A DNA stretch of 49,475 bases from an uncultured Flavobacteriales bacterium (GCA_964512145.1 CAZEIM010000005.1:27942-77416), one strand, 5' to 3'. Shown: positions 1 to 23,184, counted from the stretch's first letter. The notes: generated by a model not told the origin, from the letters alone. A program made the numbers and translations.

Positions 1-26
1 ATAATTCTTTTTCATAAATTTAAATA

Positions 27-914
27 TTAAGCAACTATATCATTTCTAATAGAGGTGATTTTTAATGTAATCTCGTCTATTAATTCTTTAGTTATTTTTA
101 CCTCAGTTTTATTATTTAATATTGTTAGTTTTTTATCTTTTTGAGTCTCAGGTTTAGCGTAAATATATTCAATCTCAACTTTATCAAAAGAATCGTTTAA
201 ATCTCTTAACTTACCTAATAAATCCTCAAAATCTTCACCATTTGCATACATTTCTAATAATTTAATCAAATTAATTAAAGAGTATTTTTGCTCACCAATT
301 CTATTTTTTAATTCTTCATTTGAATTTGTTTTATATGCAGTAGTAGCAAAATACAATGACTCTATCCATCCACCCGCTAAAATTAATGAACCTAAATCAT
401 TATTTTGGTTGTTTTGTAAATAAACATCAATTAATTTGTAGGCATCGGATACAATAGACAACAGTGAATCTTTATTTCCTAAGTTTTTTTCAAACTTTTT
501 TTGAAATTCAGGCGTAAATGCTGTAGTAATTCCTAAATCATCTGAAATTTTTTTACATGCATTTAAATACGTAATAGCATCCTGTGTTTGCTCATACAGA
601 TTAACGTACCCTAAATCCGCTCCATAAATACCTAAATTTAAGCTTTTAGAAACTTTTGTAGAATATTTTGAAGAAAAAGAAGGATTATTTAAAATATTTT
701 TATTGTAAGATACTCCAGAGCTCTGAATTAGATAAGCAGTTTGAATGGGGGAAGGAATACTAAAAAGTCTGTTGCCCAAACTAACTATTCTAGAATCGGT
801 TGTATCTACGTTTTCTATATTATCTGTTACTTCAATATCTTTAGGCTGTTTATTTTCACAAGAAACAACAAAAAAAGATAAAACTGCGAATAAAAATAAT
901 CTAGTATAATTCAT
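27..914 (-). CDS. Hypothetical lipoprotein, Bacteroidota-type
   Basis: 295-aa ORF; hydrophobic N-terminus with lipobox VVSC; no catalytic motif recognised. Confidence 0.75.
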   Translation of the reverse strand: MNYTRLFLFAVLSFFVVSCENKQPKDIEVTDNIENVDTTDSRIVSLGNRLFSIPSPIQTAYLIQSSGVSYNKNILNNPSFSSKYSTKVSKSLNLGIYGADLGYVNLYEQTQDAITYLNACKKISDDLGITTAFTPEFQKKFEKNLGNKDSLLSIVSDAYKLIDVYLQNNQNNDLGSLILAGGWIESLYFATTAYKTNSNEELKNRIGEQKYSLINLIKLLEMYANGEDFEDLLGKLRDLNDSFDKVEIEYIYAKPETQKDKKLTILNNKTEVKITKELIDEITLKITSIRNDIVA

Positions 915-7719: not shown

Positions 7720-10700
7720 ATGATAAAAAAAGTATTAGTAGCCAACAGAGGGGAAATTGCCATTCGGATATTTAGAGCTTGTGTAGAATTAGGTATAAAG
7801 ACAGTTGCTGTTTATACTTTTGAAGACCGATATTCACAGCACAGATATAAAGCAGACGAAGCCTATCAGTTAGGTAATGAAAACGACCCTTTAAAACCAT
7901 ATTTGAATATTGATGAAATTATTAATGTTGCTTTAGAGAACAATGTAGATGCTATTCATCCAGGCTATGGATTTTTATCTGAAAATGCTCTGTTTGCAAA
8001 AAAATGTGCAGAAAAAGGCATTACTTTCATTGGACCTAAACCAGAGGTAATGGAAGCTTTAGGTGATAAAATTAAAGCAAAAAAAGTTGCCATATCACAA
8101 AACATACCTATTATTCAAAGCAACCAACAAAATTTAACGGATATTTCCACTGCCATTAAAGAAGCTGAAAACATTGGCTATCCGGTTATTATTAAGGCTT
8201 CTGCCGGTGGAGGTGGTAGAGGTATGCGTATAATCCGAAACCAAACTGAATTAGAAATTGCTTTCCCTGAAGCTAAAAGAGAAGCCAAAAATGCTTTTGG
8301 AGACGATACTCTTTTTATAGAAAAATTTGTTGAAAATCCTAGGCACATCGAAGTTCAAATTGTTGCCGACAATTATGGAAATGTAGTTCATTTATTTGAA
8401 AGAGATTGTTCGGTTCAAAGGAGATTTCAAAAAGTAGTAGAAATTGCTCCCGCATTTAATCTAAAACAAGAAACTAAAAACAAATTATACGAGTACGCCA
8501 TAAAAATTGCACAAGCGGTTCGATATAATAATGTTGGTACGGTAGAGTTTTTGGTAGATCAGCATGAAAATATTTACTTTATTGAGGTTAACCCTCGTAT
8601 TCAGGTTGAACATACCGTAACAGAAATGGTAACAGGCATTGATTTAATTAAATCTCAAATTTTTATTGCTTCTGGGCAAAAATTATCCGACCACGTAAGT
8701 ATTGCCAATCAAGAATCGGTTAAAACCTATGGTTACGCCATACAGTGCCGAATAACAACAGAAGATCCGGAGCAGGATTTTAAGCCTGACTTTGGCGTGA
8801 TAACCACTTATAGAAGTGCCTCAGGATTTGGTATAAGGTTAGATGAAGGAAGTTTGTATCAAGGCGTTAAAATTAGTCCGTTTTTTGACTCATTATTAGT
8901 TAAAATATCTGCTCATTCTAGGTCTTTTGATGGAGCTATTAGAAGAATGACACGTGCACTTAGAGAAACCAGAATAAGGGGTGTAAAAACCAACATATCC
9001 TTTTTAGATAATGTAATCAACCACCCTCAATTTAAAGAAGGAAAAGTAACCGTAAACTTCATTCAAAATACACCGGAACTTTTTAAAATTGATCAGCGAT
9101 TAGACCGTGCAACTAAAATTGTACAGTATTTAGGAAATGTTGTAGTAAATGGAAATCCGGATGTAAAAACGCTAGAAAAAAGAATCTCCTTTCCTAAACC
9201 AGTTGTGCCTAAATTTAATCATTATGAAAATTATCCTAAAGGGACAAAAGACTTACTGAATGAATTGGGACCTGAAAAGTTTTGCCAATGGCTGAAAGCT
9301 GAACAAAAAATTCATTTCACGGATACAACTTTTAGAGACGCGCATCAATCTTTACTGGCAACTAGAATGCGTACCTACGATATGTTGAAAGTAGCTGAAA
9401 GTTTTGCTAAAAATCACCCAAACGTATTTAGCATGGAAGTATGGGGAGGTGCTACTTTTGATGTTTGTTTGCGTTTTTTATATGAAAATCCATGGAACAG
9501 ATTAATTGAATTAAGAAAAGCAATCCCAAATATATTGTTGCAAATGCTTATTCGAGGATCAAATGCTGTGGGATATACCTCCTATCCAGATAATGTGGTA
9601 GATGCATTTATTCAAAAATCTTGGGAAAATGGAGTGGATGTTTTTAGAATATTTGACTCATTAAATTGGTTAAAAGCCATGGAACAAAGTATTTTATCGG
9701 TGCGAAATAAAACAGGGGGTATTGCAGAAGTGGCTATGTGCTACACCGGAGATATCCTAAACCCCAAGCGTACTAAATATACATTAAAATATTACTTGCA
9801 ATTAGCCAAAGATATTGAAAATGCTGGAGCTCATATGTTGGCCATAAAAGATATGTCGGGCTTATTGAAACCTATTGCGGCAAAAGAGCTAATTACTGCT
9901 TTAAAACAAACTATTTCTATTCCTATACATTTACATACACACGACACGTCTTCTTTGCAATCGGCCACCTATTTAATGGCTATTGAATCGGGTGTTGATG
10001 TATTAGATGTTGCCCTTGGTGGATTATCGGGCTTAACATCTCAACCAAACTTTAATGCCATGGTTGAAATGTTAAGGTTTCATCCAAGAGAAAACGAAAC
10101 CAACATAGAAACATTAAATCAATTTTCAAACTATTGGGAAGATGTAAGAGAGTATTATTATCCTTTTGAATCTGGAATGAAAGCAAGTTCTGCAGAGGTG
10201 TTCCAGCATGAAATACCGGGTGGACAATATTCTAATTTAAAACCACAAGCCATCGCTTTAGGATTAGGAGATAAATTTGAAGAGATTAAAACCATGTACG
10301 CTCAAGTAAACGAACTTTTTGGTGATATCATTAAGGTTACCCCTAGCTCAAAAGTAGTTGGAGATATGGCTCAATTTATGGTTAGTAATAACTTAACCGT
10401 TGAGGATATTTTTACCAAAGGCGAAACTATTTCTTTTCCCGAATCGGTTCAATCCTTTTTTAGAGGTGAATTAGGCCAACCTCCGGGAGGTTTTCCGGAA
10501 AACCTTCAAAAAATTATTTTAAAAGATAAAACTCCCATTAGTGGTCGACCTAACGATTCTTTAAAACCCATTGATTTAGAAAATGAATTTAATGTATTTG
10601 TAAAAAACTTTCAAAAAGGCTTTGACCGAAAATTAGTATTCACCGATTTTTTATCTTACTTAATGTACCCTAAAGTTTGGAAGGAGTCTTACGAAAAACA

Positions 10701-11166
10701 CAAAGAATATGGTGATATATCTAAAATTCCTACTAAAAACTTTTTTTACGGTATGGAGCTTATGGAAGAAACCATCATTGAAATTGCTCATGGAAAATCT
10801 ATTATAGTAAAACTTTTGTCAATAGGCCCTGCAGACAAAGAAGGAAAAAGAACCGTGTTTTTTAAAGTAAACGGGCAAACTCGAAATGTGGAAATTTTAG
10901 ATCATTCATTACATGTAGAGAAAAAAGAAAACAAAAAAGCAGATACCGCAAATACAAATCATTTAGCAGCCCCTCTACAAGGGAAATTATCTAAAATTTT
11001 TATTCAAAAAGGTCAAAAAGTTCAAAAAAATGAACCTTTATTTGTTATAGAAGCCATGAAAATGGAAACCACTATAACGGCCTCCAAAGAAAGTAAAATA
11101 TTGGATATAGTTTTACAAGAAGGCTCCATGGTTAACTCAGAAGATTTGGTGTTGGTGTTAGAGTAA
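7720..11166 (+). CDS. pyc: Pyruvate carboxylase
   Basis: VANRGEIA, HPGYGFLSEN, RDAHQSLLATR, HEIPGGQYSNL and biotin-attachment EAMKM motifs; 1148 aa. Confidence 0.98.
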   Translation: MIKKVLVANRGEIAIRIFRACVELGIKTVAVYTFEDRYSQHRYKADEAYQLGNENDPLKPYLNIDEIINVALENNVDAIHPGYGFLSENALFAKKCAEKGITFIGPKPEVMEALGDKIKAKKVAISQNIPIIQSNQQNLTDISTAIKEAENIGYPVIIKASAGGGGRGMRIIRNQTELEIAFPEAKREAKNAFGDDTLFIEKFVENPRHIEVQIVADNYGNVVHLFERDCSVQRRFQKVVEIAPAFNLKQETKNKLYEYAIKIAQAVRYNNVGTVEFLVDQHENIYFIEVNPRIQVEHTVTEMVTGIDLIKSQIFIASGQKLSDHVSIANQESVKTYGYAIQCRITTEDPEQDFKPDFGVITTYRSASGFGIRLDEGSLYQGVKISPFFDSLLVKISAHSRSFDGAIRRMTRALRETRIRGVKTNISFLDNVINHPQFKEGKVTVNFIQNTPELFKIDQRLDRATKIVQYLGNVVVNGNPDVKTLEKRISFPKPVVPKFNHYENYPKGTKDLLNELGPEKFCQWLKAEQKIHFTDTTFRDAHQSLLATRMRTYDMLKVAESFAKNHPNVFSMEVWGGATFDVCLRFLYENPWNRLIELRKAIPNILLQMLIRGSNAVGYTSYPDNVVDAFIQKSWENGVDVFRIFDSLNWLKAMEQSILSVRNKTGGIAEVAMCYTGDILNPKRTKYTLKYYLQLAKDIENAGAHMLAIKDMSGLLKPIAAKELITALKQTISIPIHLHTHDTSSLQSATYLMAIESGVDVLDVALGGLSGLTSQPNFNAMVEMLRFHPRENETNIETLNQFSNYWEDVREYYYPFESGMKASSAEVFQHEIPGGQYSNLKPQAIALGLGDKFEEIKTMYAQVNELFGDIIKVTPSSKVVGDMAQFMVSNNLTVEDIFTKGETISFPESVQSFFRGELGQPPGGFPENLQKIILKDKTPISGRPNDSLKPIDLENEFNVFVKNFQKGFDRKLVFTDFLSYLMYPKVWKESYEKHKEYGDISKIPTKNFFYGMELMEETIIEIAHGKSIIVKLLSIGPADKEGKRTVFFKVNGQTRNVEILDHSLHVEKKENKKADTANTNHLAAPLQGKLSKIFIQKGQKVQKNEPLFVIEAMKMETTITASKESKILDIVLQEGSMVNSEDLVLVLE

Positions 11167-11173
11167 AATGAGC

Positions 11174-12205
11174 TTATGGTATCTCTTTAAATTCATACGT
11201 CCACTTTTGATCTAAAAATACCTGTATTTTTAGATACCCTAAAGTAGTATCGTTTTGATAAATCGCTTTAAAGTGATGTTTACCAAAAGCACTTTTTTTA
11301 CTGCCATTCCCGGAAACAAAATAATGATTATTTTGAATAGTAAAATACTGAGCATTATGATCGTGCCCAGATATATAGATTAAGTTTTCATATTTTGAAA
11401 AAATACTTAATAATTCACTTTTTACTTTTTTATATCTTGGAAAATAAAGGTCCTGACTAAAATATCGGTGCCCTCCCAAAAAATAAAGTGGAGTGTAAGT
11501 GCCCAATAAACGAACAACGGTTTTCTTTTGACCATGTTTTCCATTCGAAAACAAAGGATGGTGCGCGCAAATAAATACCAGTTCATTATTTTGTTTAGAA
11601 TGAATTAAAATAGAGTCTATTTTTCTATAAAAGTTTCGAATCATGTTCTTTTTAGTCAACCCATCCTCCTTTCCTACTGAATGAAAAATACTTTGTTGAA
11701 GAAACCACTGCAAATCCAAAAAAATTAAGCGAACATTTGAATCTATTAAAACGCTTTCAGGCCCAGGACATGCATTCGTTGGTAAAAAATTCACCTGATT
11801 TTTGTTTCGAACATTCGTAGAGTTTAAATAATTTTCCACATACCTGGATTGCTTTAAAACAGCTTGTTTTCCTCTTATTTTCCCTGCCCTCCAATCATGA
11901 TTTCCGGGAATAAAAAAAGCATTTCCTTTAAAACCATCCAAACATTGTAATTGAGAATGAATTTTTTTTTCGGATACCCTAAATTTTTTAGACTTCTCAT
12001 TCAGTTCCAGTCCTTGGTAGTAAATATTGTCGCCCAAAAATATAATACTGGATAAACTATCCAACATTAATTCTTTATTCAATGTTTTTAATGCATTATT
12101 TTGAATCGTATCTTTTCCGGCATCACCTATAAAATAGAAGGTGTGTTGAGCATAAAAATGAATTGGAAAAATCCACGTTATAAAAAGCAACCTTTTGTTA
12201 ATCAT
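11174..12205 (-). CDS. Secreted calcineurin-like metallophosphoesterase
   Basis: GDAG, GDNIY, GNHDW, HHP and SGHDH motifs; signal-like N-terminus. Confidence 0.88.
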   Translation of the reverse strand: MINKRLLFITWIFPIHFYAQHTFYFIGDAGKDTIQNNALKTLNKELMLDSLSSIIFLGDNIYYQGLELNEKSKKFRVSEKKIHSQLQCLDGFKGNAFFIPGNHDWRAGKIRGKQAVLKQSRYVENYLNSTNVRNKNQVNFLPTNACPGPESVLIDSNVRLIFLDLQWFLQQSIFHSVGKEDGLTKKNMIRNFYRKIDSILIHSKQNNELVFICAHHPLFSNGKHGQKKTVVRLLGTYTPLYFLGGHRYFSQDLYFPRYKKVKSELLSIFSKYENLIYISGHDHNAQYFTIQNNHYFVSGNGSKKSAFGKHHFKAIYQNDTTLGYLKIQVFLDQKWTYEFKEIP

Positions 12206-12225: not shown

Positions 12226-15200
12226 TTGTATCAAAAGTATTTTAAATTGCTTAAGAAACTCATTTTTTTATTTCAATTCATTTTACTAAATCTTTCGGGT
12301 ATATTTACTCAATGCGAGTTAATACAAAACGGAAATTTTGAGGCAAGTAACACCCTTCCTGCGCCTGGTTTTAGTACTCCAAATCACACCCAATTTCAAT
12401 ACTGGCCAAATGCTTGTGTTTATATAGGAGAAGTAAGTTTAGGAAGTTCTGCGAATTGTTACTCGGGTAGTTGGTCATTAACCGGAGATCATACCACTGG
12501 AAACGGAAACTTTTTAATGGTAGATATAGCTCCAAATACGACCGATATTGATTTTTATGAAACCAATTTCACTAGTCATCCTGGGGCTCAATATCGATTA
12601 AATGTTTGGGCATATAATCCTAATATTACCAATAATTATTTTACTCGATTAGATTTAAAAGTAAATGGGACAAAACAAAACAATGTTTTAACTGTAAATA
12701 ATACACCGGGCTGGAAATACAAAGACTTTATATTCACGGCCGCCTCGGCAAGTACAAATATTAAATTATACAACAATGGAAATCATAATGGTTCTTCCGG
12801 GAAAGATATTGCCATAGACGATGTTTGTGTAGAACCTATCTTCGACTCCATTCGAGTGGTTTTATTAAATCCAAGTACTGGAATTTGCACTGGAGATACC
12901 GCCTTTTTTAGATTTGAATATTTTGGTTTTAATGGTGGCATTTGTTTTCAGATTAACGATGGCGGAGCCCTATCTAACAATACATTTAGCAAAGATGCTA
13001 TTTTTTACTCCATTGTAAACGCAAACAAAAGCATACAATTTACAGCAAACTTTTGTGAGGGGAGAAATTACCAGAAGGTTTTTAATCTTACGGCAGAAAC
13101 TCAAATCCCGGTTCAAATTTCATCCAGTGATATATGCGATGGGGGTATAAACGTTGTTTCCATTAATGGCCCAAACAATGGTAGCTTTTCTTTAATTCCT
13201 CCACTAACCGATGCTGCCATCATTGATCCTGTAAGCGGAGAAATATCAAACTATACCGTTGGAAACTCCTATATTATAGAATATGAAGTAAATAATAACG
13301 GATGTATTGGAATTGGAACGGATACCGTTCAAGTATATTCCCCTGAAAATGCTTCTTTTACTATGCCAAACTTTTGTGAAGGTTCTGCGCAAACCATCCA
13401 AATAAATGGAACTCCCAACGGAATATTTTCATTTTTCACTCATCCAATGGATGGATCTACGATTAATCCCAACAGCGGAATCATCAGTAACTATGTTGCA
13501 GGAACCACGTATTCCGTTCAATATAAAACTACCGGTTTTTGTCCCGATAGTGCTGTTCAACAAGTACAAGTTATTACTAAAGATGTGGCCGATGTTACAG
13601 CTTCCGACTTTTGTTTTGGCACCTCAAATACTATACAAATAAATGGAACTACGGGTGGAGTATTTTCATTCTCCCCTACCCCTTCAGATGGTGCCATAAT
13701 AAATGCTTCTTCGGGAGTTATCTCAAATTATACATCCGGAAGTACATATTCCATACAATATACTACACTGGGTGTATGTCCAGATTCTCAAACATTTAGT
13801 ATATCCGTATTAGATAAAGACATTGCGCTTTTTTCTTCTGCCAACTTTTGTGAAGGAACGCAAAACAACATTCAACTTTTAGGAACAAGTGGAGGTGTAT
13901 TTTCTTTTGTTAATACCCCCTTAGATGGAGCAACCATGAATTCTAATACAGGTATCATATCGAACGGTACAGCTGGAAGTACTTATTCTATTAAATATGT
14001 AACTCCAGGTGTTTGTAAAGACAGTTCTACTCAAAGTGTTATGGTTATTCCTACACAAAACGCAAGTTTTGTGTATAACGACTTTTGTCCCGGAAGCATT
14101 ATTACACCTATTATTACCGGAAATTCAGGTGGAACGTTTTCATTTAACCCAAACCCAAATGACGGAAGTACCATAAATCCAAATAATGGACAAATTTCAA
14201 ATCCAATTGACGGCACATTGTATTTTGTACAATATGCTACCTCAGGACAATGTCCTGATTCTTCTGTAGTTCCGGTTCAGGTTTATAACAGGCCTCAAGC
14301 TCTAATCTACGGAAGCGGTGATTTATGTGATCAACAAAAAGACTCCTTTTATATACAATTAAATGGAATTGCGCCTTTCAATTTTTCATTTACAGATGGA
14401 ACTCTTATTTACACCTATGTAAATTATAATTCGAATCTATTTTCATTTGAAGTGACTCATACAAACCCATTTACAATGATTGATGTTTCGGATAATCAAT
14501 GCTCGGGAATAGTAACCGGAAATACTAGTTTTACCAGTAGTGATTTACAAGTTACATTAGACACAAACGTTGGATGTCCGGGTTTTGAAACTTCTTTTAC
14601 TATTTCATCTGTATTAGGAAATAACCCAACCTGTATTTGGAAATTTAAAGACGGAACACAAATAAATGAATGTAATACCTTTTCTAAAACCTTTTATGAA
14701 GAAGGATGTGAAGATGTGGAAATTATAGTTACAGCAGATTATGGATGTAAAGGCAGTTTCATAAAAAATAATTTGATTTGTGTATTAGAAGCCCCTAAAA
14801 GCTCATTTACCATGTACCCTGAAATTCCTACGTATTTTAATTCTGACATTGAATTGTACAACACTTCGATAAATGCAGAACAAATACAGTGGAACATGGA
14901 TGGAATTGTTCTAAGTACAGGAAACCAAGTATCGTTTGAATTGCCCCAGGATTCTAGCAAATCGTTTCAAATATGTTTACTTTCTGTGTCTAAAGAACAG
15001 TGTAAAGACACTCACTGTATTGATGTAAAAATACAGGATGATTATGTGTTATATGTGCCCAATACATTTACACCGGATGAAAACAACCTAAACGAAGTAT
15101 TTTTACCGGTGGTAACGCAAGCTCCTGAATATTCTTTTACTATATACAACAGATGGGGGACCATTGTTTTTAATACACCAAACACCAAAGAAGGTTGGGA

Positions 15201-15315
15201 TGGCATAGAAAATGGGAAAAAAGTTGAACAAGGCGTGTACACATGGCTCATTGAATTAGTAAACTACAAAGGCATAGCGGTTCGTAAAACCGGAAAAGTA
15301 TTGGTGTTGTATTGA
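12226..15315 (+). CDS. T9SS type B sorting domain (gliding motility-associated C-terminal domain) surface protein with internal repeats; start may be the TTG at 12247
   Basis: Signal peptide; GNFE..DHTTGNG..DIAIDD N-terminal domain; five ~79-aa repeats; PKD-like domains; YVPNTFTP...IYNRWG...GWDG C-terminus. Confidence 0.88.
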   Translation: MYQKYFKLLKKLIFLFQFILLNLSGIFTQCELIQNGNFEASNTLPAPGFSTPNHTQFQYWPNACVYIGEVSLGSSANCYSGSWSLTGDHTTGNGNFLMVDIAPNTTDIDFYETNFTSHPGAQYRLNVWAYNPNITNNYFTRLDLKVNGTKQNNVLTVNNTPGWKYKDFIFTAASASTNIKLYNNGNHNGSSGKDIAIDDVCVEPIFDSIRVVLLNPSTGICTGDTAFFRFEYFGFNGGICFQINDGGALSNNTFSKDAIFYSIVNANKSIQFTANFCEGRNYQKVFNLTAETQIPVQISSSDICDGGINVVSINGPNNGSFSLIPPLTDAAIIDPVSGEISNYTVGNSYIIEYEVNNNGCIGIGTDTVQVYSPENASFTMPNFCEGSAQTIQINGTPNGIFSFFTHPMDGSTINPNSGIISNYVAGTTYSVQYKTTGFCPDSAVQQVQVITKDVADVTASDFCFGTSNTIQINGTTGGVFSFSPTPSDGAIINASSGVISNYTSGSTYSIQYTTLGVCPDSQTFSISVLDKDIALFSSANFCEGTQNNIQLLGTSGGVFSFVNTPLDGATMNSNTGIISNGTAGSTYSIKYVTPGVCKDSSTQSVMVIPTQNASFVYNDFCPGSIITPIITGNSGGTFSFNPNPNDGSTINPNNGQISNPIDGTLYFVQYATSGQCPDSSVVPVQVYNRPQALIYGSGDLCDQQKDSFYIQLNGIAPFNFSFTDGTLIYTYVNYNSNLFSFEVTHTNPFTMIDVSDNQCSGIVTGNTSFTSSDLQVTLDTNVGCPGFETSFTISSVLGNNPTCIWKFKDGTQINECNTFSKTFYEEGCEDVEIIVTADYGCKGSFIKNNLICVLEAPKSSFTMYPEIPTYFNSDIELYNTSINAEQIQWNMDGIVLSTGNQVSFELPQDSSKSFQICLLSVSKEQCKDTHCIDVKIQDDYVLYVPNTFTPDENNLNEVFLPVVTQAPEYSFTIYNRWGTIVFNTPNTKEGWDGIENGKKVEQGVYTWLIELVNYKGIAVRKTGKVLVLY
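13115..14290 (+). repeat. Five tandem ~79-aa Ig-like coding repeats (approximate bounds)
   Basis: Recurring (F/I)C.G....I.G...G.FS..P.DG..IN..SG.ISN...G..Y...Y...G.C.DS pattern in the translation. Confidence 0.8.
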
Positions 15316-15636
15316 AACCACAATCACTGTACAAATTCAAAAAATGGGGAATTTTAAATCAATTTAGAGGTAAAACATAAATTTTACTCTTGTTACAAAT
15401 ACTGTCCTATGAGCTATGTTTGTGAAGATGATGCATAGATTTTTATTTTTAAAAACTTTGCATTAATTTTATTAATTAAAAAAAGAGTCAGGTTGAAAAT
15501 AATGAAAAAAATAAGGCGTAGTAAAGACTATATAAATCTATCAAAATATAGTTGGCTTTATTTGGTTTACTAAGTATATAAGTAAGTTATGGGCAATGCT
15601 AAAATACAGACAGACCAAACATAAAACGACAGACGA

Positions 15637-15727
15637 AATGCCAACCGCACATTCAGGCACATTTGCTTGCCCCAACACACGGACGACCGCTTCGCAAGCA
15701 AAAGAGCCTGAATTTTGCCTACGCCCA
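15637..15727 (+). repeat. GC-rich hairpin element, copy 1
   Basis: AATGCCAACC leader; ATTCAGGC/GCCTGAAT and TTTGCTTGC/GCAAGCAAA complementary arms (15651-15713); CCTACGCCCA tail. Confidence 0.7.
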
Positions 15728-15759
15728 AATACTGCCGAATTTAAACTGATTTAGGATTA

Positions 15760-18207
15760 ATGACAATAGAGGAAATATATTATTCTGAAGAAATAAGTGT
15801 TCGTTCTTTCAACGTCTGTAATGACAATGACTTAAAAGACCTGTCCGCAATTTTAAAACACTATCGTGAAAATAGAACTTTCGAAAATCTTAAAAATTGT
15901 GGAAGAAAATCTAATGAAGAATTGACAGCTTTATGTTTGAAATATACAGATTATGACAATAATCATTTATCTGAACCTTTAGAGCCAGAAAAACAACTAA
16001 TTACGACAATAACTAATTTCACAAGAACCCAAAGAGAAGTAGTAAATAGTTTTATCGAAATAAATTCAAATAACCTTTCAAATAGAAGCAAAAACGCCAT
16101 AACCACGTTCCTAAATGGAAATTTGAAAATTCGAAACATAAGCGAGAAAATTTTAACGAATGATAGATTCAATTTCCAAGACATTAAAAATGTCGGAAAA
16201 AAGACGGTAACGGAGTTAAAAAGTTTTATTGATTCAATAATTGAATTTATTACAAAAGTTGCGGAAGTTGGCAATGAAAATGATTTAGTTGCTCTGCGAA
16301 ACAGATTTTTCATCGAAAAAACATTTTCAATTTCTTCAATCCCTAATGAAATTCTAGAATCACAATCAATTTTTAGCCTAGTTGATTTTCTAATAAGTAA
16401 AGATGCAATCTTTGAAAAAAACGAAAACCTCATTTTCAAAAAAGGCATTAAAATTTATAATGATCAACCAGAACTTACACTAGATGACATAGCAGATGAA
16501 ATAAAAATTTCAAGAGAGAGAGTTAGACAAATACGGAAAGGTATTTTGGAAAATTTATTCAATAACCTGCAATTTGTAAGGAATATTGAAGACGATTTGT
16601 ATCAGAAATACGATATTGACCAAAATCATCACTTTATCAACATTGATGACGATTTAAATAATTTGATAAATACAGTCAATAACACTAATTTTTCTGTTGA
16701 ATTTAACACAATCATAATCTACTCTTACATTTCAGATAAATTTGATCTTATTGGAGAGATTGAAGATGTCTTACAACCCAAAACATTTAATTCTAGAGGT
16801 CGTCATAATTGGGATAATTTTTACTTAGTAAGCAAAGGCCTAACCAATCTTTTTGACTTCAATAATCTCGTTGATGACATAGATAAAAGACTGAATGACA
16901 GAATTGAAGAAACGTATTGGTTCCACTTCAAAAGCTACTTAACCAGTTTTATGAAGGTAGATGATAACTCTTTAATAACATTAATTTTACCTGTTGCTGA
17001 GAAAATTCTTAATAAAGAATTCGATCTCATAATTGACCTTAACGATAATATTATTTTTAAAAGAAATACAGTCAAACAAGTTCCTGAATTTGCAATAGAA
17101 GCATTAGAGAAACTTGGTGTACCTTCAAACATTGAGGCCATCTACAAATTAATTGAAAAAGAATTTCCTGAAATAACTAAAAGCAAAGAAGCATTGAGAG
17201 GGAGTTTACAACGAACACCTGAAATAATATACTTTGGTAGAAGTAGTACATATGGCTTAAAAAAATGGGAAACAGAAAAGGATGGAATCAAAGGTGGAAC
17301 TATTAGAAGCATTGTAATTAAATTCCTAGAGTTAGAATCCGAACCTATTCATATTTCAAAAATATCAAAACACGTATTACAATATCGTCCTGATTCAAAT
17401 GAAAAAAGTATCTACTATAATTTGAAAATGGATGAGTCAAACTCTTTTATTTTCTATAAAGATTCGCACGTTGGATTGATTCAAAAGAATTATGACAAAG
17501 CTTTTGAAAAAATATCTAATGATAAGAGAATTGAAAAAAAATCTTGGGAAGAAAGATATACTGAACTCTCAGGATTTATAGCTGTAAACAATAGATTACC
17601 CTTTTCAAGTGGTTGTCCTGAAAACGAAATCAAACTTTACAGATGGTATAAAATCCAGGTTGGAAAAACAAAAAATGGGAGGATCGAAGAAGAAAAAGGC
17701 AATTTAATAAACGAGATAATTAAAAATTTTGAAAAAGGTGAATCTACTCAAAGGACAAGCACAAATAATATAGGAAGAATAAAAAAGGTAAGTAGTAATT
17801 CTAAATATACATATGAATACCTGACTGAATTTATAAGTATTAATAAGCGGATGCCCGACTCCAGAGATCCAAATGAAAGTCGCCTTTATCAATATTATTA
17901 CAGAAACAAAAAAAATCTCGAAAATATTGATGAATTATCAGTACAAGAAGCGAAGTTATTGGAATTAATAGAGAAATTTGGATCTTCTAAACATCCTAAA
18001 CATACAATTGATGAATTGATGGAATTTATTAAAAGCAATAAGAGAATGCCCGATTCCAGAAAAAATAATGAAAGGGGGCTATATCAGTTTGCTTATAAAC
18101 AAAGAAAGTTGTTCGAAGAAGGAGATCTAGACAAAGTCGAAGTAAACAAATTTGTTGAAATAGCTAAAATAATTCAAAATCACAAGTATGAAAATAAAAG
18201 AAACTAA
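15760..18207 (+). CDS. Multidomain nucleic-acid-binding protein: 2x RNAP alpha-CTD-like, sigma70 region 4, 2x winged-HTH-like, 3x helicase-associated (HA)-like repeats
   Basis: ISVRSFN..LKNCGRKSNEEL and LSNRSKN..IKNVGKKTVTEL; TLDDIADEIKISRERVRQI; ALEKLGVP..TYGLKKWE; SWEERYTEL..F...NNRLP..E.KLYRW and two NKRMPDSR repeats. Confidence 0.75.
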   Translation: MTIEEIYYSEEISVRSFNVCNDNDLKDLSAILKHYRENRTFENLKNCGRKSNEELTALCLKYTDYDNNHLSEPLEPEKQLITTITNFTRTQREVVNSFIEINSNNLSNRSKNAITTFLNGNLKIRNISEKILTNDRFNFQDIKNVGKKTVTELKSFIDSIIEFITKVAEVGNENDLVALRNRFFIEKTFSISSIPNEILESQSIFSLVDFLISKDAIFEKNENLIFKKGIKIYNDQPELTLDDIADEIKISRERVRQIRKGILENLFNNLQFVRNIEDDLYQKYDIDQNHHFINIDDDLNNLINTVNNTNFSVEFNTIIIYSYISDKFDLIGEIEDVLQPKTFNSRGRHNWDNFYLVSKGLTNLFDFNNLVDDIDKRLNDRIEETYWFHFKSYLTSFMKVDDNSLITLILPVAEKILNKEFDLIIDLNDNIIFKRNTVKQVPEFAIEALEKLGVPSNIEAIYKLIEKEFPEITKSKEALRGSLQRTPEIIYFGRSSTYGLKKWETEKDGIKGGTIRSIVIKFLELESEPIHISKISKHVLQYRPDSNEKSIYYNLKMDESNSFIFYKDSHVGLIQKNYDKAFEKISNDKRIEKKSWEERYTELSGFIAVNNRLPFSSGCPENEIKLYRWYKIQVGKTKNGRIEEEKGNLINEIIKNFEKGESTQRTSTNNIGRIKKVSSNSKYTYEYLTEFISINKRMPDSRDPNESRLYQYYYRNKKNLENIDELSVQEAKLLELIEKFGSSKHPKHTIDELMEFIKSNKRMPDSRKNNERGLYQFAYKQRKLFEEGDLDKVEVNKFVEIAKIIQNHKYENKRN

Positions 18208-18370
18208 ATTATTGCAAGAGCAAAGACTAAAAGAAATATCAACGGATAAGGGTGTTGATTATGATTCTTTAAATTCCCTCCTTGAATCTGTTAGAACAAA
18301 AAAGTTGCTGAAAAGAAATAATTATCATCAGCAAAAAATTAATGACGTAATTGAAAAAGCAACAAAATGA
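18188..18370 (+). CDS. Small Dnd-associated protein resembling the DndC C-terminal helical segment
   Basis: 60 aa; overlaps the upstream gene by 20 bp and dndD via ATGA; LKEIS..KGVDYDSL.SLLE..R pattern recalls DndC tails (from memory). Confidence 0.6.
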   Translation: MKIKETKLLQEQRLKEISTDKGVDYDSLNSLLESVRTKKLLKRNNYHQQKINDVIEKATK

Positions 18371-20472
18371 AATTTTCAAACATTGAAATAAATAATTTCA
18401 GGCAATATTACAACTCTGTATATGTTGACCTTGAGACAAATGATGAAAGAAATATCGTCATAATTGGTGGTCGCAATGGTTATGGCAAAACAAATTTTTT
18501 GCTTTCAATCGTTTGGTGTTTATTTGGCGATAAGATTTCACAGATAGATGAGAATTTCAAAAAAGAGATTCAAAAGGAAAAAAACTATTCTTCCTTTATG
18601 CAACAATCTATCAATTGGACAGCAAAAAAAGAAAACAAAACTAAGTTTTTCGTAAGTATTACAATTTCAGATATTGAATTACCAGAATTAAGAGTACTTA
18701 ATTCAAATACAAATTCCATAGTTATAAAAAGAACTTTTGATGTGGCATCAATGAATGAAACACTTTCAATCACTGACGTGACCTCAAACCTTGAAATATT
18801 TGATGATGAAAGTGACAAAGTAAATTTTATTAATGATTATATCATTCCAATTGACGCAGCAAAATTTGTGTTTTTTGATGCCGAAAAGATTGCAGAAATA
18901 GCAAATTTGTCAATTAAAGATGAAGGCAGTTTTATTAATGATGCTCTTGGAAAAATTCTTGGTTTGGATACATATGAAACTTTAATTGAGGACATTGAAT
19001 TTTACATCAATAGTTTGAAAAAAGAAGGAGCATCAAAAAACCTTCAAGAACAAATAATTAATAATGAAAAAGCTATCGAAATATCAGAGGATCAAATAAA
19101 TAAACTTGAAGAAGAAAATGCTGAAAGTCTAAAGAAAATTGATGACTTAAAGAAAGATATTAGAGAATACGATGATGTGATTTTAAAACATAGTAAAAAA
19201 GGCAACTCAACTTTTGATAGAAACGCTATTATAATTGAAATCGACAAGTTAAAGGCTAAAGAGGTTGAGCTTAATGAACGATTTAACGAATTGAGTGAAA
19301 TTATACCGCTTGCTATTCTCACAGGAAAACTAGAAGAAGTAAAAGAACATTTGGAAATTCAAGAAAAAAATGAACTTTCACAAAACTCATCCAAGGAGAA
19401 CTCGGATAAAATTGAAAACTTTATTGAACTTCTTTTCAATAAACCTCCTGAACCAGAGAATTCAACAATGTCTTTAAAGGATAAAATGTTTTACTATGAA
19501 AAGGCACAAACATTAGGATCACAATTATTTAAAGAGAATGGCGAATACACAGAACTTGAATTTGAACACGATCTTAATAATTCTGAAAAGAAGCTAATAG
19601 CAGATGCAATCAACTTGGTTAATACACAATCCAAAGATTTATTTAAAACTACAATTGAAGAATTTAACGAGATAAAAGTAAAACTATCAGATTTAAATAA
19701 AACTCTAAGTAAAGTTGATGCAGATCTTGAAGACGAATTAATTCTTGAGTATTCGTCAAAAAAAGAAACAGCAGATTATAATATTACAGAAAAAAACAGG
19801 CAAATTGGCGAGAATAATCAACAAATCACAAAGCTGAGAAGTGATATAGTAAGACTCAATCAACAATTAGTTACTTTAGTAAAGAAAGTTGATATTAACG
19901 AGCAAAACAAGTTAAAGATTCAAAAGAGTAATCAATATATTGATGTTTTACATCAGTTCCTAGATGAACAAAAGAATAAGCATAAAGATAGCTTAGAAGA
20001 AACAATTCTTTCTGAACTCAAAATCCTTATGCACAAACTGAATAGCGAACCTAATCAAACTAAATTTATTGAAGATGTAAAGGTTACTATACTTGCCTCT
20101 GGACAAGGAATGAAAATCACACTTTTTGACCAAGATGACATTGAGATTAGAAAAGAAAGCCTTTCATCTGGTGAGAAGCAAATTTATATCTCTTGTTTGA
20201 TAAAAGCTATTTTAAAGGAATCAATTAAAAGTCTTCCAATTTTTATTGACACACCTTTAGGAAGACTTGACGAGGAACACAGAGATAGTATTACTAAAAA
20301 ATATTATCCAGCACTTTCTGAACAGGTTGTTTTATTCTCTACAAATAGTGAGATAACACCAAAAAGATTCAAAGAGATTTCAGGAAACATTTCAAAATCG
20401 TATTTATTATTCAATGACGGAGTAAATACAAATTTAAAAAGTGGATATTTTAATACAATAAGCAATGATTAG
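18367..20472 (+). CDS. dndD: DNA sulfur modification protein DndD (SMC/Rad50-like ATPase)
   Basis: Walker A GGRNGYGKT; FFDAEKI; long coiled coil; signature LSSGEKQ; IDTPLGRLD..HR; YYP..S.QVVLFSTNSEI. Confidence 0.88.
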   Translation: MKFSNIEINNFRQYYNSVYVDLETNDERNIVIIGGRNGYGKTNFLLSIVWCLFGDKISQIDENFKKEIQKEKNYSSFMQQSINWTAKKENKTKFFVSITISDIELPELRVLNSNTNSIVIKRTFDVASMNETLSITDVTSNLEIFDDESDKVNFINDYIIPIDAAKFVFFDAEKIAEIANLSIKDEGSFINDALGKILGLDTYETLIEDIEFYINSLKKEGASKNLQEQIINNEKAIEISEDQINKLEEENAESLKKIDDLKKDIREYDDVILKHSKKGNSTFDRNAIIIEIDKLKAKEVELNERFNELSEIIPLAILTGKLEEVKEHLEIQEKNELSQNSSKENSDKIENFIELLFNKPPEPENSTMSLKDKMFYYEKAQTLGSQLFKENGEYTELEFEHDLNNSEKKLIADAINLVNTQSKDLFKTTIEEFNEIKVKLSDLNKTLSKVDADLEDELILEYSSKKETADYNITEKNRQIGENNQQITKLRSDIVRLNQQLVTLVKKVDINEQNKLKIQKSNQYIDVLHQFLDEQKNKHKDSLEETILSELKILMHKLNSEPNQTKFIEDVKVTILASGQGMKITLFDQDDIEIRKESLSSGEKQIYISCLIKAILKESIKSLPIFIDTPLGRLDEEHRDSITKKYYPALSEQVVLFSTNSEITPKRFKEISGNISKSYLLFNDGVNTNLKSGYFNTISND

Positions 20473-22036
20473 ATTCAAAATAGACAACGAAAGCACTGAA
20501 CTTTTAGATAGAATTACAAATATCTATAATTTCAAAAGAGATACTATTACAGGTAGAATTGCACTTGCCTTAAGTATTAACAAAGGTAAATTCTTTCACA
20601 ACAACGAAAATGGGTTACCTCAAAATGGTCGTGAATACACCCCAACAAGTAACATTTTTGGTCGTTTAGTGAATGATACTGATAACTATGTTTTGTATAA
20701 AACAATATTCGATCAACATTATAAAAAAGAACTTTCTGAAAATGATTTTATAAAACTGTACAAATTGCATTTAAGAGATGGTTTAGATCTATGGATTAAT
20801 GAATTGGAAAAAGGGGATATCACTAAAGGCGATCATATTTCATTTTTAATTGAACCCGTTAAGCGAGGTCTAGCGAAAAGAAGTACGAATGTTGTTTTAG
20901 GCAACAATCAAGTTAGAAATAATCAAAATGAAATTTCAATGAGTGGTTCTTCAAAACCAATTGAATTAAATTTTGGATTAGATTTAAATGGTGAAAGAAT
21001 TCTAGTAAAAATTAACGATGAGAGAGAATACACAAGTCGACACTTTGCTATTGCAGGAACTACTGGATCAGGTAAAACCCAATTCGTTTTTGATATTCTA
21101 AATCAAATTTCAAAACAAACTGATTATGAGTTAAAGTTTACCTTTTTTGATTTTAAAGGTACTGACACTAAAGAAAAACTTAATGACTTTTTAAATTCTA
21201 CTAATGCTGAATTTATAAAAGTTAATCACAACGAAGGTTTTCCTTTTAGTCCTTTAAAGAACTATGATTTGAGTAATCAAAACTATATTGAGTCATTTGC
21301 AAGTGACCTTAGGACATTTTTTAAAGATATTAGACAGGTACAATCTGCAAGCTTAGTAAGGCAAATTATTGATTACTACTTTGATAACAAAAAATCTCCA
21401 ACATTGATTGAGTTAATGGAAAGTTTGTTAGAAAATAATAAAGGAAAATTCGATACGACCACTAGTGTTATTCAGCAATTGATTAATTCTGGCATCTATG
21501 ACGAAAGTAAGACATATTCAATATTTGATCAAAGTTCATACATATCTATGCCATCGGAAGTAACAAAGGAAATCAAACAATTTGTAACTTTCAATTTACT
21601 TAAATTTATGTATGATAAAATTAAAAGATCAGGAGATACAGTTGTAAATGATAATATAAAAGAGTTGAAACACATAATTATTATTGATGAAGCTCAAAAT
21701 TTTCTGCAACATAAAAATGCCCGACCTGTAATCGAAGATATGTTAAGAGAATTAAGGTCAATGGGGATAATTATAATTTTAATTGCTCAAGAAACTCAAG
21801 ATTTCATTTACAGTGATTTTGATTTAACTTCTCAAATCAAGTTTCCTATTTGTTGTGATGTTAGAGATAAATCTCTCAAGAGAATAGTTCCATTTATTGG
21901 AAGTGTTAACAGCGAATTGAAATTAAAAAATCAACTTGATAAACTAGAGTCGGGAAAAGCAATAATTAATATCGGAGAACCTAAAATTATCGAGCTAAGA
22001 CAATGGTGGAAAACCAAAAAAGAAGAAAATATATAA
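20465..22036 (+). CDS. dndE: DndE domain fused to a HerA/VirB4-like P-loop ATPase (DndEi-like)
   Basis: N-terminal RIALALS...GREY....IFG...KLHLRDGL (DndE-like); Walker A IAGTTGSGKT; FDFKG; Walker B IIIIDEAQ; RELRSMG; overlaps dndD by 8 bp. Confidence 0.75.
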   Translation: MIRFKIDNESTELLDRITNIYNFKRDTITGRIALALSINKGKFFHNNENGLPQNGREYTPTSNIFGRLVNDTDNYVLYKTIFDQHYKKELSENDFIKLYKLHLRDGLDLWINELEKGDITKGDHISFLIEPVKRGLAKRSTNVVLGNNQVRNNQNEISMSGSSKPIELNFGLDLNGERILVKINDEREYTSRHFAIAGTTGSGKTQFVFDILNQISKQTDYELKFTFFDFKGTDTKEKLNDFLNSTNAEFIKVNHNEGFPFSPLKNYDLSNQNYIESFASDLRTFFKDIRQVQSASLVRQIIDYYFDNKKSPTLIELMESLLENNKGKFDTTTSVIQQLINSGIYDESKTYSIFDQSSYISMPSEVTKEIKQFVTFNLLKFMYDKIKRSGDTVVNDNIKELKHIIIIDEAQNFLQHKNARPVIEDMLRELRSMGIIIILIAQETQDFIYSDFDLTSQIKFPICCDVRDKSLKRIVPFIGSVNSELKLKNQLDKLESGKAIINIGEPKIIELRQWWKTKKEENI

Positions 22037-22317: not shown

Positions 22318-23184
22318 ATGGATAGAAAGAATGAAATTAAAGTATTTGAGGATAAGCAGGTAAGGTCTATTTGGGATGAAAAGAAGGAAAAATGGTATAT
22401 CTCAATAGTGGATGTGATTGCCGTTTTAACCGAAAGTGTTGACCCCACAGTTTATTGGAGAAAACTTAAACAAAGATTAAAAGCAGAGGGAAACGAAACC
22501 GTGACGAATTGTCACGGGTTGAAAATGCAGGCTATGGATGGTAAAATGCGGATGACGGATGTAGCTGATACCGAACAACTATTCCGCCTGATACAATCCA
22601 TTCCATCTCCCAAAGCCGAGCCTTTTAAACAATGGCTGGCGCAGGTAGCCGCAGAACGTTTGGATGAAATGCAAGACCCGGAATTGAGCATTGACAGGGC
22701 ATTGGAACAATACATGAAACTTGGTTATTCAGAAAACTGGATTAACCAAAGACTAAAAAGTATTGAGATACGAAAAGAATTAACAGACGAATGGAAAAAA
22801 CGGGGATTGAAACAAGGGGTTCAGTTTGCAACGCTTACCGATATTATTACCAAATCTTGGAGCGATAAAACCACCAAAGAATACAAAATCCTGAAAGGTT
22901 TGAAAAAGGAAAACCTGCGGGATAACATGACCAATACAGAACTCATTTTAAATATGCTTGCCGAGGCATCCACAAAAGACATATCAGCGGCAACCAATCC
23001 GAAAAATTTTGAAGAAAGCAAGAAAGTAGCCAAACAGGGAGGTAATGTAGCAAGGGTGGCACGAAAAGAATTGGAAGCTAAAACAGGTAAAAATGTAGTT
23101 ACTTCTCTAAATGCCAAAAAATTGTCTGAATCAGAATTGAAAAAATTAGAGGATGAACAGGATAAAAAGAAAAAAAGAAAATGA
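22318..23184 (+). CDS. BRO-N domain protein (phage antirepressor-like DNA-binding protein)
   Basis: VRSIWD...WY.S.VDVI.VLT, YWRKLKQRL, ETVTNCHGLK, RLIQSIPSPKAEPFK.WLA and NLRDNMT motifs. Confidence 0.85.
   Translation: MDRKNEIKVFEDKQVRSIWDEKKEKWYISIVDVIAVLTESVDPTVYWRKLKQRLKAEGNETVTNCHGLKMQAMDGKMRMTDVADTEQLFRLIQSIPSPKAEPFKQWLAQVAAERLDEMQDPELSIDRALEQYMKLGYSENWINQRLKSIEIRKELTDEWKKRGLKQGVQFATLTDIITKSWSDKTTKEYKILKGLKKENLRDNMTNTELILNMLAEASTKDISAATNPKNFEESKKVAKQGGNVARVARKELEAKTGKNVVTSLNAKKLSESELKKLEDEQDKKKKRK
23122..23163 (+). repeat. Left arm of 42-bp imperfect inverted repeat flanking GxxExxY
   Basis: Reverse complement matches 23563-23604 at 31/42 positions without gaps. Confidence 0.75.

Follow-up and report, generated by a model that had tools for sequence, protein, structure and literature searches.

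The window analysed here, a 49,475-nucleotide (nt) stretch of DNA from an uncultured Flavobacteriales bacterium (GCA_964512145.1, CAZEIM010000005.1:27942-77416), carries a four-gene operon that opens with a gene for an 815-amino-acid (aa) protein made only of nucleic-acid-binding-type modules, which we refer to as the multi-helix-turn-helix (multi-HTH) protein. The order of the operon is multi-HTH, a small protein of the Pfam family Sp-DndD, a DndD-type ABC ATPase, and DndE fused to a HerA/FtsK-type ATPase (DndE-HerA). We propose, with a probability that we place at roughly 0.55, that a Dnd-derived system independent of phosphorothioate (PT) modification is encoded here, in which the multi-HTH protein acts as the subunit that recognises DNA, for targeting or sensing, and does so multivalently; this system probably serves in defence. 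The proposal builds on the place of the multi-HTH gene, which is taken by DndC in eight related Bacteroidota operons, and on Sp-DndD, which sequence profiles show to be a homologue of the C-terminal tail of DndC.

To compare the operon with related ones we took 12 loci, four of them on metagenome contigs that came from a single-protein scan; one (L003) was cut inside the gene and was dropped, leaving 11 informative loci. The order multi-HTH/Sp-DndD/DndD, with DndE-HerA following where the contig reaches it, was kept in nine of the 11 (L001, L002, L004, L005, L013, L014, L046, L048 and L049). In the window the Sp-DndD gene shares 20 nt with the end of the multi-HTH gene and 4 nt with the start of dndD. 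Six other loci carry Sp-DndD, at identities as low as 40% and with 18 invariant positions, and its overlap with the upstream gene ranges from about 1 to 20 nt depending on the locus, which fits coupled translation and not a frameshift fusion. The ATPase that follows was matched by PADLOC models of both DndD (E 6.3e-88) and PbeC (E 4.4e-86). DndE-HerA was matched by DUF87/HerA, AAA_10 and FtsK_SpoIIIE and by the C-terminal ATPase of DndH (E 9.5e-27), and its translation shows GSGKT and IIIIDEAQ.

Relatives of DndE-HerA were present at E ≤ 1e-8 in 11 of 400 other Bacteroidota genomes sampled. Eight of these genomes carry full-length DndE-HerA fusions of 26-30% identity, and in all eight loci the fusion is preceded by DndD, and DndD in turn by DndC (TIGR03183, 428-477 bits against a cut-off of 290.4); no multi-HTH family match at E ≤ 1e-2 was found in any of the eight. 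The remaining three genomes were G187 and G239, both of the multi-HTH type, and G179, with a partial match. This last is a HerA-like match of 27% identity, covering query residues 181-521, on contig 1 (881454-882539, minus strand) inside a 1743-aa frame that may encode a DndH-type protein. DndC was not found in the genome that holds the window (90% complete) or in G187 and G239 (both 100% complete); control genomes G243 and G151 were positive. The genome of the window has one DndE only, and no DGQHR/DndB was found in it. Between the DndC-type and multi-HTH-type loci, DndD is 30-32% identical.

The relationship of Sp-DndD to DndC was recovered in both directions. When an Sp-DndD profile built from seven sequences was run without filters against the 990 six-frame open reading frames (ORFs) of the eight DndC-type loci, the top three matches were the C-termini of DndC (E 1e-4, 1.4e-3 and 3.5e-3), aligned at the last ~70 residues, and three more DndCs stood in the top 15, aligned at the same place. 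Conversely, a profile was made of the eight DndCs, limited to their 80 C-terminal residues; run against 1041 ORFs of the multi-HTH-type loci, it placed eight Sp-DndD ORFs at ranks 1-8 (E 1.5e-5 to 0.028, next 1.7), with a ninth, in L049, at rank 12 (E 3.5). On the window itself the same profile ranked the Sp-DndD ORF first of 236 (E 2.2e-4; next 0.98), and the Pfam Sp-DndD model matched the C-terminus of DndC in G151, below its cut-off (E 5.5e-4). Passages of a study of Escherichia coli B7A (PMC12193691) report that DndC binds the head and coiled-coil-1 of DndD via residues 433-482 and a C-terminal helix, on the basis of AlphaFold3 models and pull-downs in which point mutants break binding, and that DndE binds coiled-coil-2 of DndD. 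The Sp-DndD gene, the absence of DndC and the docking tail as a separate gene were all missing from an earlier note on this DNA, as was the confidently modelled domain at residues 268-445 of the multi-HTH protein.

Table 1. Operon genes and modules of the multi-HTH protein, with positions counted from the first nucleotide of the window.
Feature	Position	Strand	Evidence
Multi-HTH gene (815 aa, P0001), first operon gene	15760..18207	+	Open frame, ATG start
Alpha-CTD-like repeat 1 (residues 1-62)	15760..15945	+	RNA_pol_A_CTD 20.3 bits, E 4.6e-4, below cut-off; alignment with RpoA of the same genome
Alpha-CTD-like repeat 2 (residues 88-165)	16021..16254	+	RNA_pol_A_CTD 16.6 bits, E 6.7e-3, below cut-off; alignment with RpoA of the same genome
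Sigma-70 region 4 HTH (residues 215-268)	16402..16563	+	PF04545 over cut-off; PDB RpoS/RpoD region 4
Family-specific middle domain (residues 268-445), alpha/beta, winged-helix-like	16561..17094	+	AlphaFold2 pLDDT 95.5, pTM 0.89
Winged helix 3 (residues ~443-505), HARE-HTH-like	17086..17274	+	AlphaFold2 model; Z 9.3-9.4 to 2od5 and 7viv
Winged helix 4 (residues ~510-580)	17287..17499	+	AlphaFold2 model; Z 8.0-8.7 to PerR/Fur-, MarR- and Z-alpha-type, model residues 73-142
HA repeat 1 (residues 590-655)	17527..17724	+	PF03457, best stretch 593-653
HA repeat 2 (residues 688-750)	17821..18009	+	Aligned with repeats 1 and 3
HA repeat 3 (residues 755-815)	18022..18204	+	Aligned with repeats 1 and 2
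Sp-DndD small protein (60 aa)	18188..18370	+	ORF; PF20306 36.6 bits (cut-off 27.2), residues 10-59
DndD-type ABC ATPase with coiled-coil insert (701 aa)	18367..20472	+	TIGR03185 260.6 bits (cut-off 245.85)
DndE (residues 3-109) fused to HerA/FtsK-type ATPase (523 aa)	20465..22036	+	PF08870 28.7 bits (cut-off 25)

The 815-aa frame described in the earlier note was upheld, and the reverse strand across it is dense with stops; an antisense ORF of 161 aa inside the gene (15963-16448, minus strand) is unsupported and probably an A/T-rich by-product. Homologues of the multi-HTH protein numbered 499 at E ≤ 1e-3 among 7998 candidates scored (90%-identity clusters), with source names that include Saprospiraceae, Flavobacterium, Runella and other Bacteroidota. 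The family is large and uncharacterised: of its clusters at 50% identity, 1450 reach E ≤ 1e-3, 1070 reach E ≤ 1e-10 and 481 reach E ≤ 1e-30, and relatives carry the database name 'sigma factor-like helix-turn-helix DNA-binding protein'. Residues 1-580 form the conserved core; members differ in how many N-terminal repeats they have and in their C-terminal tail. For domain comparisons we used a family profile (A1) of 37 diverse members and a second set of 20 longer members, and across these 57 proteins no enzymatic Pfam domain was found, in line with the earlier note, in which no catalytic motif was recognised.

The N-terminus holds two repeats resembling the C-terminal domain (CTD) of the RNA polymerase (RNAP) alpha subunit. 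RNA_pol_A_CTD (PF03118, gathering cut-off 23.8 bits) was the top Pfam family for each repeat scanned alone, and the whole protein scored 17.8 bits; all of these matches are below the cut-off. Support at the level of the family was broader, with RNA_pol_A_CTD matched at E ≤ 0.01 in 19 of the 37 members and at E ≤ 1e-3 in 10 of the 20 longer ones (six of these 10 over the cut-off), and the 37-member profile found RNAP alpha in the PDB at E 1.5e-3. The homologue in L005 (32% identical) has three alpha-CTD-like repeats and scores over the cut-off. Compared with SVRALN/NFGKKS in the CTD of the genome's own RpoA, repeat 1 reads SVRSFN/NCGRKS and repeat 2 SNRSKN/NVGKKT, and R109 and G146 of repeat 2 are conserved in at least 90% of the 37 members. 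The underlying R..N and N.G.K[ST] motifs are the DNA-contacting '265 determinant' of E. coli alpha, of helix-hairpin-helix type. The two alpha-CTD-like motifs that had been noticed earlier are supported by their contact residues and by the family, with both repeats of this protein falling short of the Pfam threshold.

The sigma-70 region 4 HTH, also previously recognised by eye, was matched by Sigma70_r4 (PF04545, cut-off 24.1) at 26.8 bits in the whole protein (residues 237-266) and 30.2 bits in the isolated fragment, and in 26 of the 37 members; against the PDB the family profile found region 4 of RpoS, RpoD and SigA (best E 4.6e-5). The recognition helix SRERVRQI matches TRERVRQI of one sigma factor encoded in the same genome. 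Sigma70_r2 and Sigma70_r3 had no Pfam match in the multi-HTH protein, and NCBIfam sigma models matched region 4 alone, at 15-21 bits against cut-offs of 43-530.

Residues 268-445 and 440-590 were each modelled with AlphaFold2 on a 147-row alignment, and the models were compared by VIA-align with 48,161 representatives; Z below 8 is the range that the tool deems common for unrelated folds. The middle domain (residues 268-445), modelled with high predicted local distance difference test (pLDDT) and predicted template modelling (pTM) scores (Table 1), has no Pfam family and no Foldseek PDB match at E ≤ 1e-3. The sole chain at Z ≥ 5 was 8dk1_E of JetABC (Z 6.2, root-mean-square deviation (rmsd) 2.9 over 70 residues, model residues 99-168); weaker rows from Scc1-C (Z 4.5 and 3.9), MukF (4.4) and Brn1 (4.3 and 3.6) were level with unrelated winged helices. 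In the ESM Atlas the best scores for this region were 0.80-0.82, a range reached by shuffled proteins, and clusters carrying Sigma70_r4 and HARE-HTH are leads only. We regard residues 268-445 as a predicted family-specific, winged-helix-like domain, for which a kleisin relationship is a lead only.

The model of residues 440-590 (pLDDT 95.0) consists of two helix-helix-helix-strand-strand units. Ten chains reached Z ≥ 8 and every one is a winged helix, among them 2od5_A (9.3), I73R of African swine fever virus (9.0) and histone H5 (8.2), so that the predicted tandem winged helix is confirmed at the level of the model. Foldseek returned no PDB match at E ≤ 1e-3 for this region, as for the middle domain, and its sub-threshold rows were winged helices. 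Assignment to the RNAP delta subunit, also proposed earlier, is compatible with the model: Bacillus subtilis delta (2m4k) stood at rank 32 with Z 7.9 (rmsd 2.1, 64 residues, 19% identity; top row 9.4), linker-histone, forkhead, Fur and Z-alpha winged helices scored Z 7.7-9.4, and chain E of the Staphylococcus aureus RNAP complex 8x6g, a subunit unnamed in the output, scored 7.6. HARE-HTH (PF05066, cut-off 25.9) was absent from the 815-aa protein and its fragments (E ≤ 10) and from the 37 members, and passed the cut-off in one of the 20 further members, P0254, at 26.9 bits and at the equivalent position. The two winged helices first seen in the sequence therefore stand as folds, with a delta- or HARE-like identity as a possibility that the comparison allows.

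The C-terminal tail carries the three HA repeats that had been predicted (PF03457, cut-off 28.4), which reached 28.2 bits in the whole protein and 34.7 bits, in two stretches, when residues 591-815 were scanned alone; they align with one another at 11 invariant positions. HA was matched in 22 of the 37 members, and the family profile found 2kta in the PDB at E 3e-4. P0254 (874 aa) has three 'HNH_repeat' (homing-endonuclease-associated) units (E 6.2e-47) instead of HA repeats, and the tail of the family can therefore be seen as a swappable repeat cassette. In L002, from Saprospiraceae, the HA tail has grown to many near-identical tandem repeats and the frame (7998-11344, plus strand) is split into 952 and 119 aa; the DndE-HerA gene of that locus is split too (13652-14968 and 14905-15249), and assembly error or decay could be the cause. 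We dismiss a Pfam 'Death' match in the L002 homologue (E 5.7e-9) as an artefact: none of its stretches passes individually, and the match sits on the near-identical HA repeats.

Family members are patchily distributed. The multi-HTH protein was found at E ≤ 1e-10 in 3 of the 400 other Bacteroidota genomes sampled. Identities to the window differ strongly between the genes of one operon: DndD, Sp-DndD, multi-HTH and DndE-HerA are 95%, 92%, 73% and 53% identical, respectively, in L001, 84%, 78%, 44% and 67% in L014, and 45%, 40%, 32% and 36% in L005. DndD is 74-95% identical in the close loci, and in L001, L013, L014, L046 and L048 DndE-HerA is 50-67% identical against 82-95% for the adjacent DndD, out of step with the multi-HTH protein, which suggests recombination of, or diversifying selection on, the DndE-HerA gene. 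DndD and Sp-DndD are thus the stable core of the operon, and multi-HTH and DndE-HerA vary independently of each other, a pattern that fits roles in specificity or sensing and a shuffling of modules. The module upstream of Sp-DndD is also exchangeable, given the arrangement on contig 19 of G275 (L055, 5105-14216, minus strand), where an N6/N4 DNA methylase, a superfamily 2 (SF2) Res-like helicase and RhuM stand before Sp-DndD, a DndD-like ATPase and a HerA/FtsK protein (542 aa).

Around the operon, a Bro-N protein is encoded 281 nt downstream (22318-23184, plus strand); it matches the PADLOC candidate PDC-S13 over its full length (E 2.5e-138), and its gene has a G+C content of 0.37-0.38 vs 0.29. 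The Bro-N gene is not conserved beside the other multi-HTH-type operons; a weak relative was seen downstream of L036, a locus of the DndC type. Neighbours in L005 are a relaxase and a HEPN gene. Upstream of the multi-HTH gene lies a 444-nt intergenic region (15316-15759), of which ~15590-15740 appears richer in G+C than its surroundings; this stretch is single copy in the genome and belongs to no Rfam family, and Rfam had no match over the window as a whole. Scans for promoters and terminators returned about as many hits as chance predicts (38 vs 38.5 expected and 3 vs 2.6 expected, respectively).

In the mechanism that we propose, Sp-DndD would dock on the head and coiled coil of DndD, as the DndC tail does in E. 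coli, and the multi-HTH protein would stand in for the catalytic body of DndC, giving the DndD/DndE scanning complex and the HerA/FtsK translocase multivalent DNA recognition rather than modification. PT modification is not expected here because there is no DndC body, no DndB/DGQHR was found and DndE is fused to a HerA/FtsK ATPase. The multi-HTH protein may read A/T-rich, promoter-like DNA of the UP plus -35 type, since its alpha-CTD, alpha-CTD, sigma-4 order from N- to C-terminus mirrors the order from UP to -35. The ATP-driven parts of HerA/FtsK and DndD would be the effectors against invading DNA. A role in defence is suggested by the patchy occurrence, by the fast divergence of multi-HTH and DndE-HerA beside a near-constant DndD, and by the neighbours, Bro-N/PDC-S13 in the window and the relaxase and HEPN gene in L005.

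Several observations weigh against this proposal. No member of the family was found on plasmids and phages (tblastn) or IMG/VR contigs (scan), no PADLOC model matches the multi-HTH protein, and neither a nuclease nor another recognisable effector is encoded in the operon; what suggests a defence role is context only. The alpha-CTD matches of the 815-aa protein itself remain below the Pfam cut-off, and promoter-like DNA reading, which may apply, is conjecture on our part. The link between the multi-HTH protein and Sp-DndD, DndD and DndE-HerA is one of genomic context. In two of the 11 loci, L015 (31-33% identity) and L047 (69%), the gene has no Sp-DndD or DndD beside it, so that the protein can exist alone. 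The earlier idea of a DNA reader that directs or regulates DndD and DndE is therefore favoured by the conserved, overlapping operon, the DndC position and the exclusively DNA-binding-type modules; a physical interaction with DndD or DndE is putative. A complex prediction of DndD and Sp-DndD with residues 268-445 as the scored partner gave 0.00 in both runs, a value that, without controls, is uninformative on binding. The solo homologue of L047 (1257-3221, plus strand) also lacks the HA tail; upstream of it a cut ORF (1-552, plus strand) ends in motifs (IIIQEPERELHP, ETHSP) that resemble the C-terminal half of an ABC-type ATPase.

The same two solo loci fit a reading of the protein as a large sigma-like/HTH repressor or activator that controls transcription, either of its own operon or elsewhere, in a DndB-like role outside the complex. 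This alternative, which we consider unlikely, would also account for modules that are all of HTH type with no enzyme domain, for the sigma factor-like name given to relatives, and for the first place in the operon, a common one for an autoregulator. Against it, nine to ten DNA-binding modules in 815 aa are far above the usage of regulators, the overlaps between multi-HTH, Sp-DndD and dndD suggest coupled translation and fixed stoichiometry, and the gene sits in the slot of a complex subunit, DndC, with the docking tail retained alongside. Nor is the protein a sigma factor, because it has no regions 2 or 3.

A second and quite unlikely alternative makes the protein an effigy of RNAP promoter recognition, with its two alpha-CTDs and sigma region 4 in the order of a promoter, that acts as an immune sensor, either as bait for phage take-over factors (ADP-ribosyltransferases, anti-sigma appropriators) or as a reader of strong UP/-35-type early promoters on incoming DNA, and that licenses the DndD clamp and the HerA/FtsK pump, via the freed DndC tail peptide, to act on that DNA. 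The stricter form of this idea, raised in the earlier note as well, a decoy whose alpha-CTD-like and sigma-4 baits are captured or modified by phage factors so that the DndD and HerA/FtsK ATPases are switched on, we regard as very doubtful. Phage factors do target alpha-CTD and sigma region 4 (T4 Alt/ModA and AsiA), and the multi-HTH protein brings together relatives of parts of two RNAP subunits at least, and possibly of three, with a sigma-4 helix as in a sigma factor of its own genome and the conserved-arginine motif of alpha-CTD kept. Its fast divergence beside a constant DndD is also often seen in sensors of phage proteins. However, the conserved alpha-CTD and sigma-4 residues are DNA-contacting ones, equally expected for DNA binding, and so do not discriminate between a decoy and a plain DNA-binding protein. 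RNAP delta subunits are typical of Firmicutes, not Bacteroidota, which weakens a delta decoy, and in Bacteroidota RNAP has nothing that corresponds to the other six modules (winged helices and HA repeats). Members also differ in how many alpha-CTD-like repeats they carry, with three in L005 and N-terminal extensions in many, a variation more in keeping with DNA-binding valency than with mimicry of a fixed surface. Finally, no printed precedent was found, a search of literature titles having returned nothing relevant on RNAP-decoy defence or on a PT-independent DndD/HerA system. A kleisin- or KITE-like bridge, in which residues 268-445 would use their winged helices to grip the heads of a DndD dimer, in the manner of kleisin and KITE proteins on SMC/MukB/JetC, and the other modules hold DNA, is very unlikely: the JetABC chain is the top structural match of that domain, Scc1-C, MukF and Brn1 are also listed, weak Foldseek rows include the KITE proteins Nse1-Nse3, and DndD is a coiled-coil ABC ATPase of Rad50/SMC type, but every Z is below 8, many non-kleisin winged helices score equally, and Sp-DndD as the DndC tail homologue would already account for docking on the head.

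On the proposal of a DNA-recognition subunit, the operon is of interest because Dnd systems are studied as DNA-sulphur modification machines, and here a DndD/DndE core with a HerA/FtsK motor occurs without the modification enzyme. The enzyme body would have been exchanged for a chain of DNA-binding modules and the DndD-docking tail kept as a 60-aa protein, which would assign a function to the Pfam family Sp-DndD and leads to a testable model in which DndC, the multi-HTH protein or a methylase/Res/RhuM set is swapped on a conserved ATPase core. If the operon does serve in defence, then it has an unusual sensor, one put together from the promoter-recognition modules of RNAP; and should the effigy idea hold, an immune system guarding against transcription take-over would have arisen from a DNA-modification machine stripped of its enzyme.

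Parts of this system were already known, namely the core of DndD with DndE-HerA and the family Sp-DndD. We found no earlier description of the multi-HTH architecture, of the substitution for DndC or of Sp-DndD as a former DndC tail. Our search did not extend to Krishnan et al. (2020), Aravind & Iyer (2012) or the supplementary material of Rakesh et al. (2024), which may bear on these points. Parts of Rakesh, Aravind & Krishnan (2024, PMC10853773) describe DndE-HerA fusions beside a DndD-related ATPase within PT-modification systems and list a 'DndDE dyad only' category, and the sections of that paper on HerA/FtsK and CxC ABC ATPases make no mention of a multi-HTH partner. The operon is like the DndC-DndD-DndE/HerA operons of Bacteroidota (HerA/FtsK 'clade 3' in those sections of PMC10853773) in having DndD followed by a DndE-HerA/FtsK fusion; it is unlike them in that DndC is replaced by the multi-HTH protein and a free-standing tail peptide. 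With canonical DndCDE, as described for E. coli B7A in passages of PMC12193691, it shares DndD and a DndE domain, both over their cut-offs, and a homologue of the DndC docking tail; in contrast, it lacks the PAPS (3'-phosphoadenosine 5'-phosphosulphate)-reductase/Fe-S body of DndC, no DndB/DGQHR was found, and its DndE is fused to HerA/FtsK.

The PbeABCD/CxC-ABC-ATPase systems, as set out in the same sections of PMC10853773, resemble the operon in their four-gene layout, where a large first protein is followed by a small one, a coiled-coil ABC ATPase and a cognate of DndE, and PADLOC models of PbeC match the ATPase of the window nearly as well as those of DndD. The window ATPase, however, has no CxC (its 701 aa have cysteines only in WCLFG and ISCLIK), the multi-HTH protein has neither the HKD nuclease nor the SF2 helicase that PMC10853773 gives as features of these systems, and the small protein belongs to Sp-DndD and is apparently derived from the DndC tail. 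Similarity to RNAP itself extends to the sequence motifs and profile matches of alpha-CTD and sigma-70 region 4 and to a fold match with delta at Z 7.9; yet here a single protein that is no polymerase carries the modules in a row, without an alpha N-terminal domain or sigma regions 2 and 3, and the scores for RNA_pol_A_CTD and HARE-HTH are both under the cut-offs of these families proper. The locus on contig 19 of G275 differs in having the methylase, Res-like helicase and RhuM genes where the window has multi-HTH, and in an ATPase that is only distantly related (E 2.1e-13), and is like the window in its Sp-DndD, coiled-coil ABC ATPase and HerA/FtsK core.

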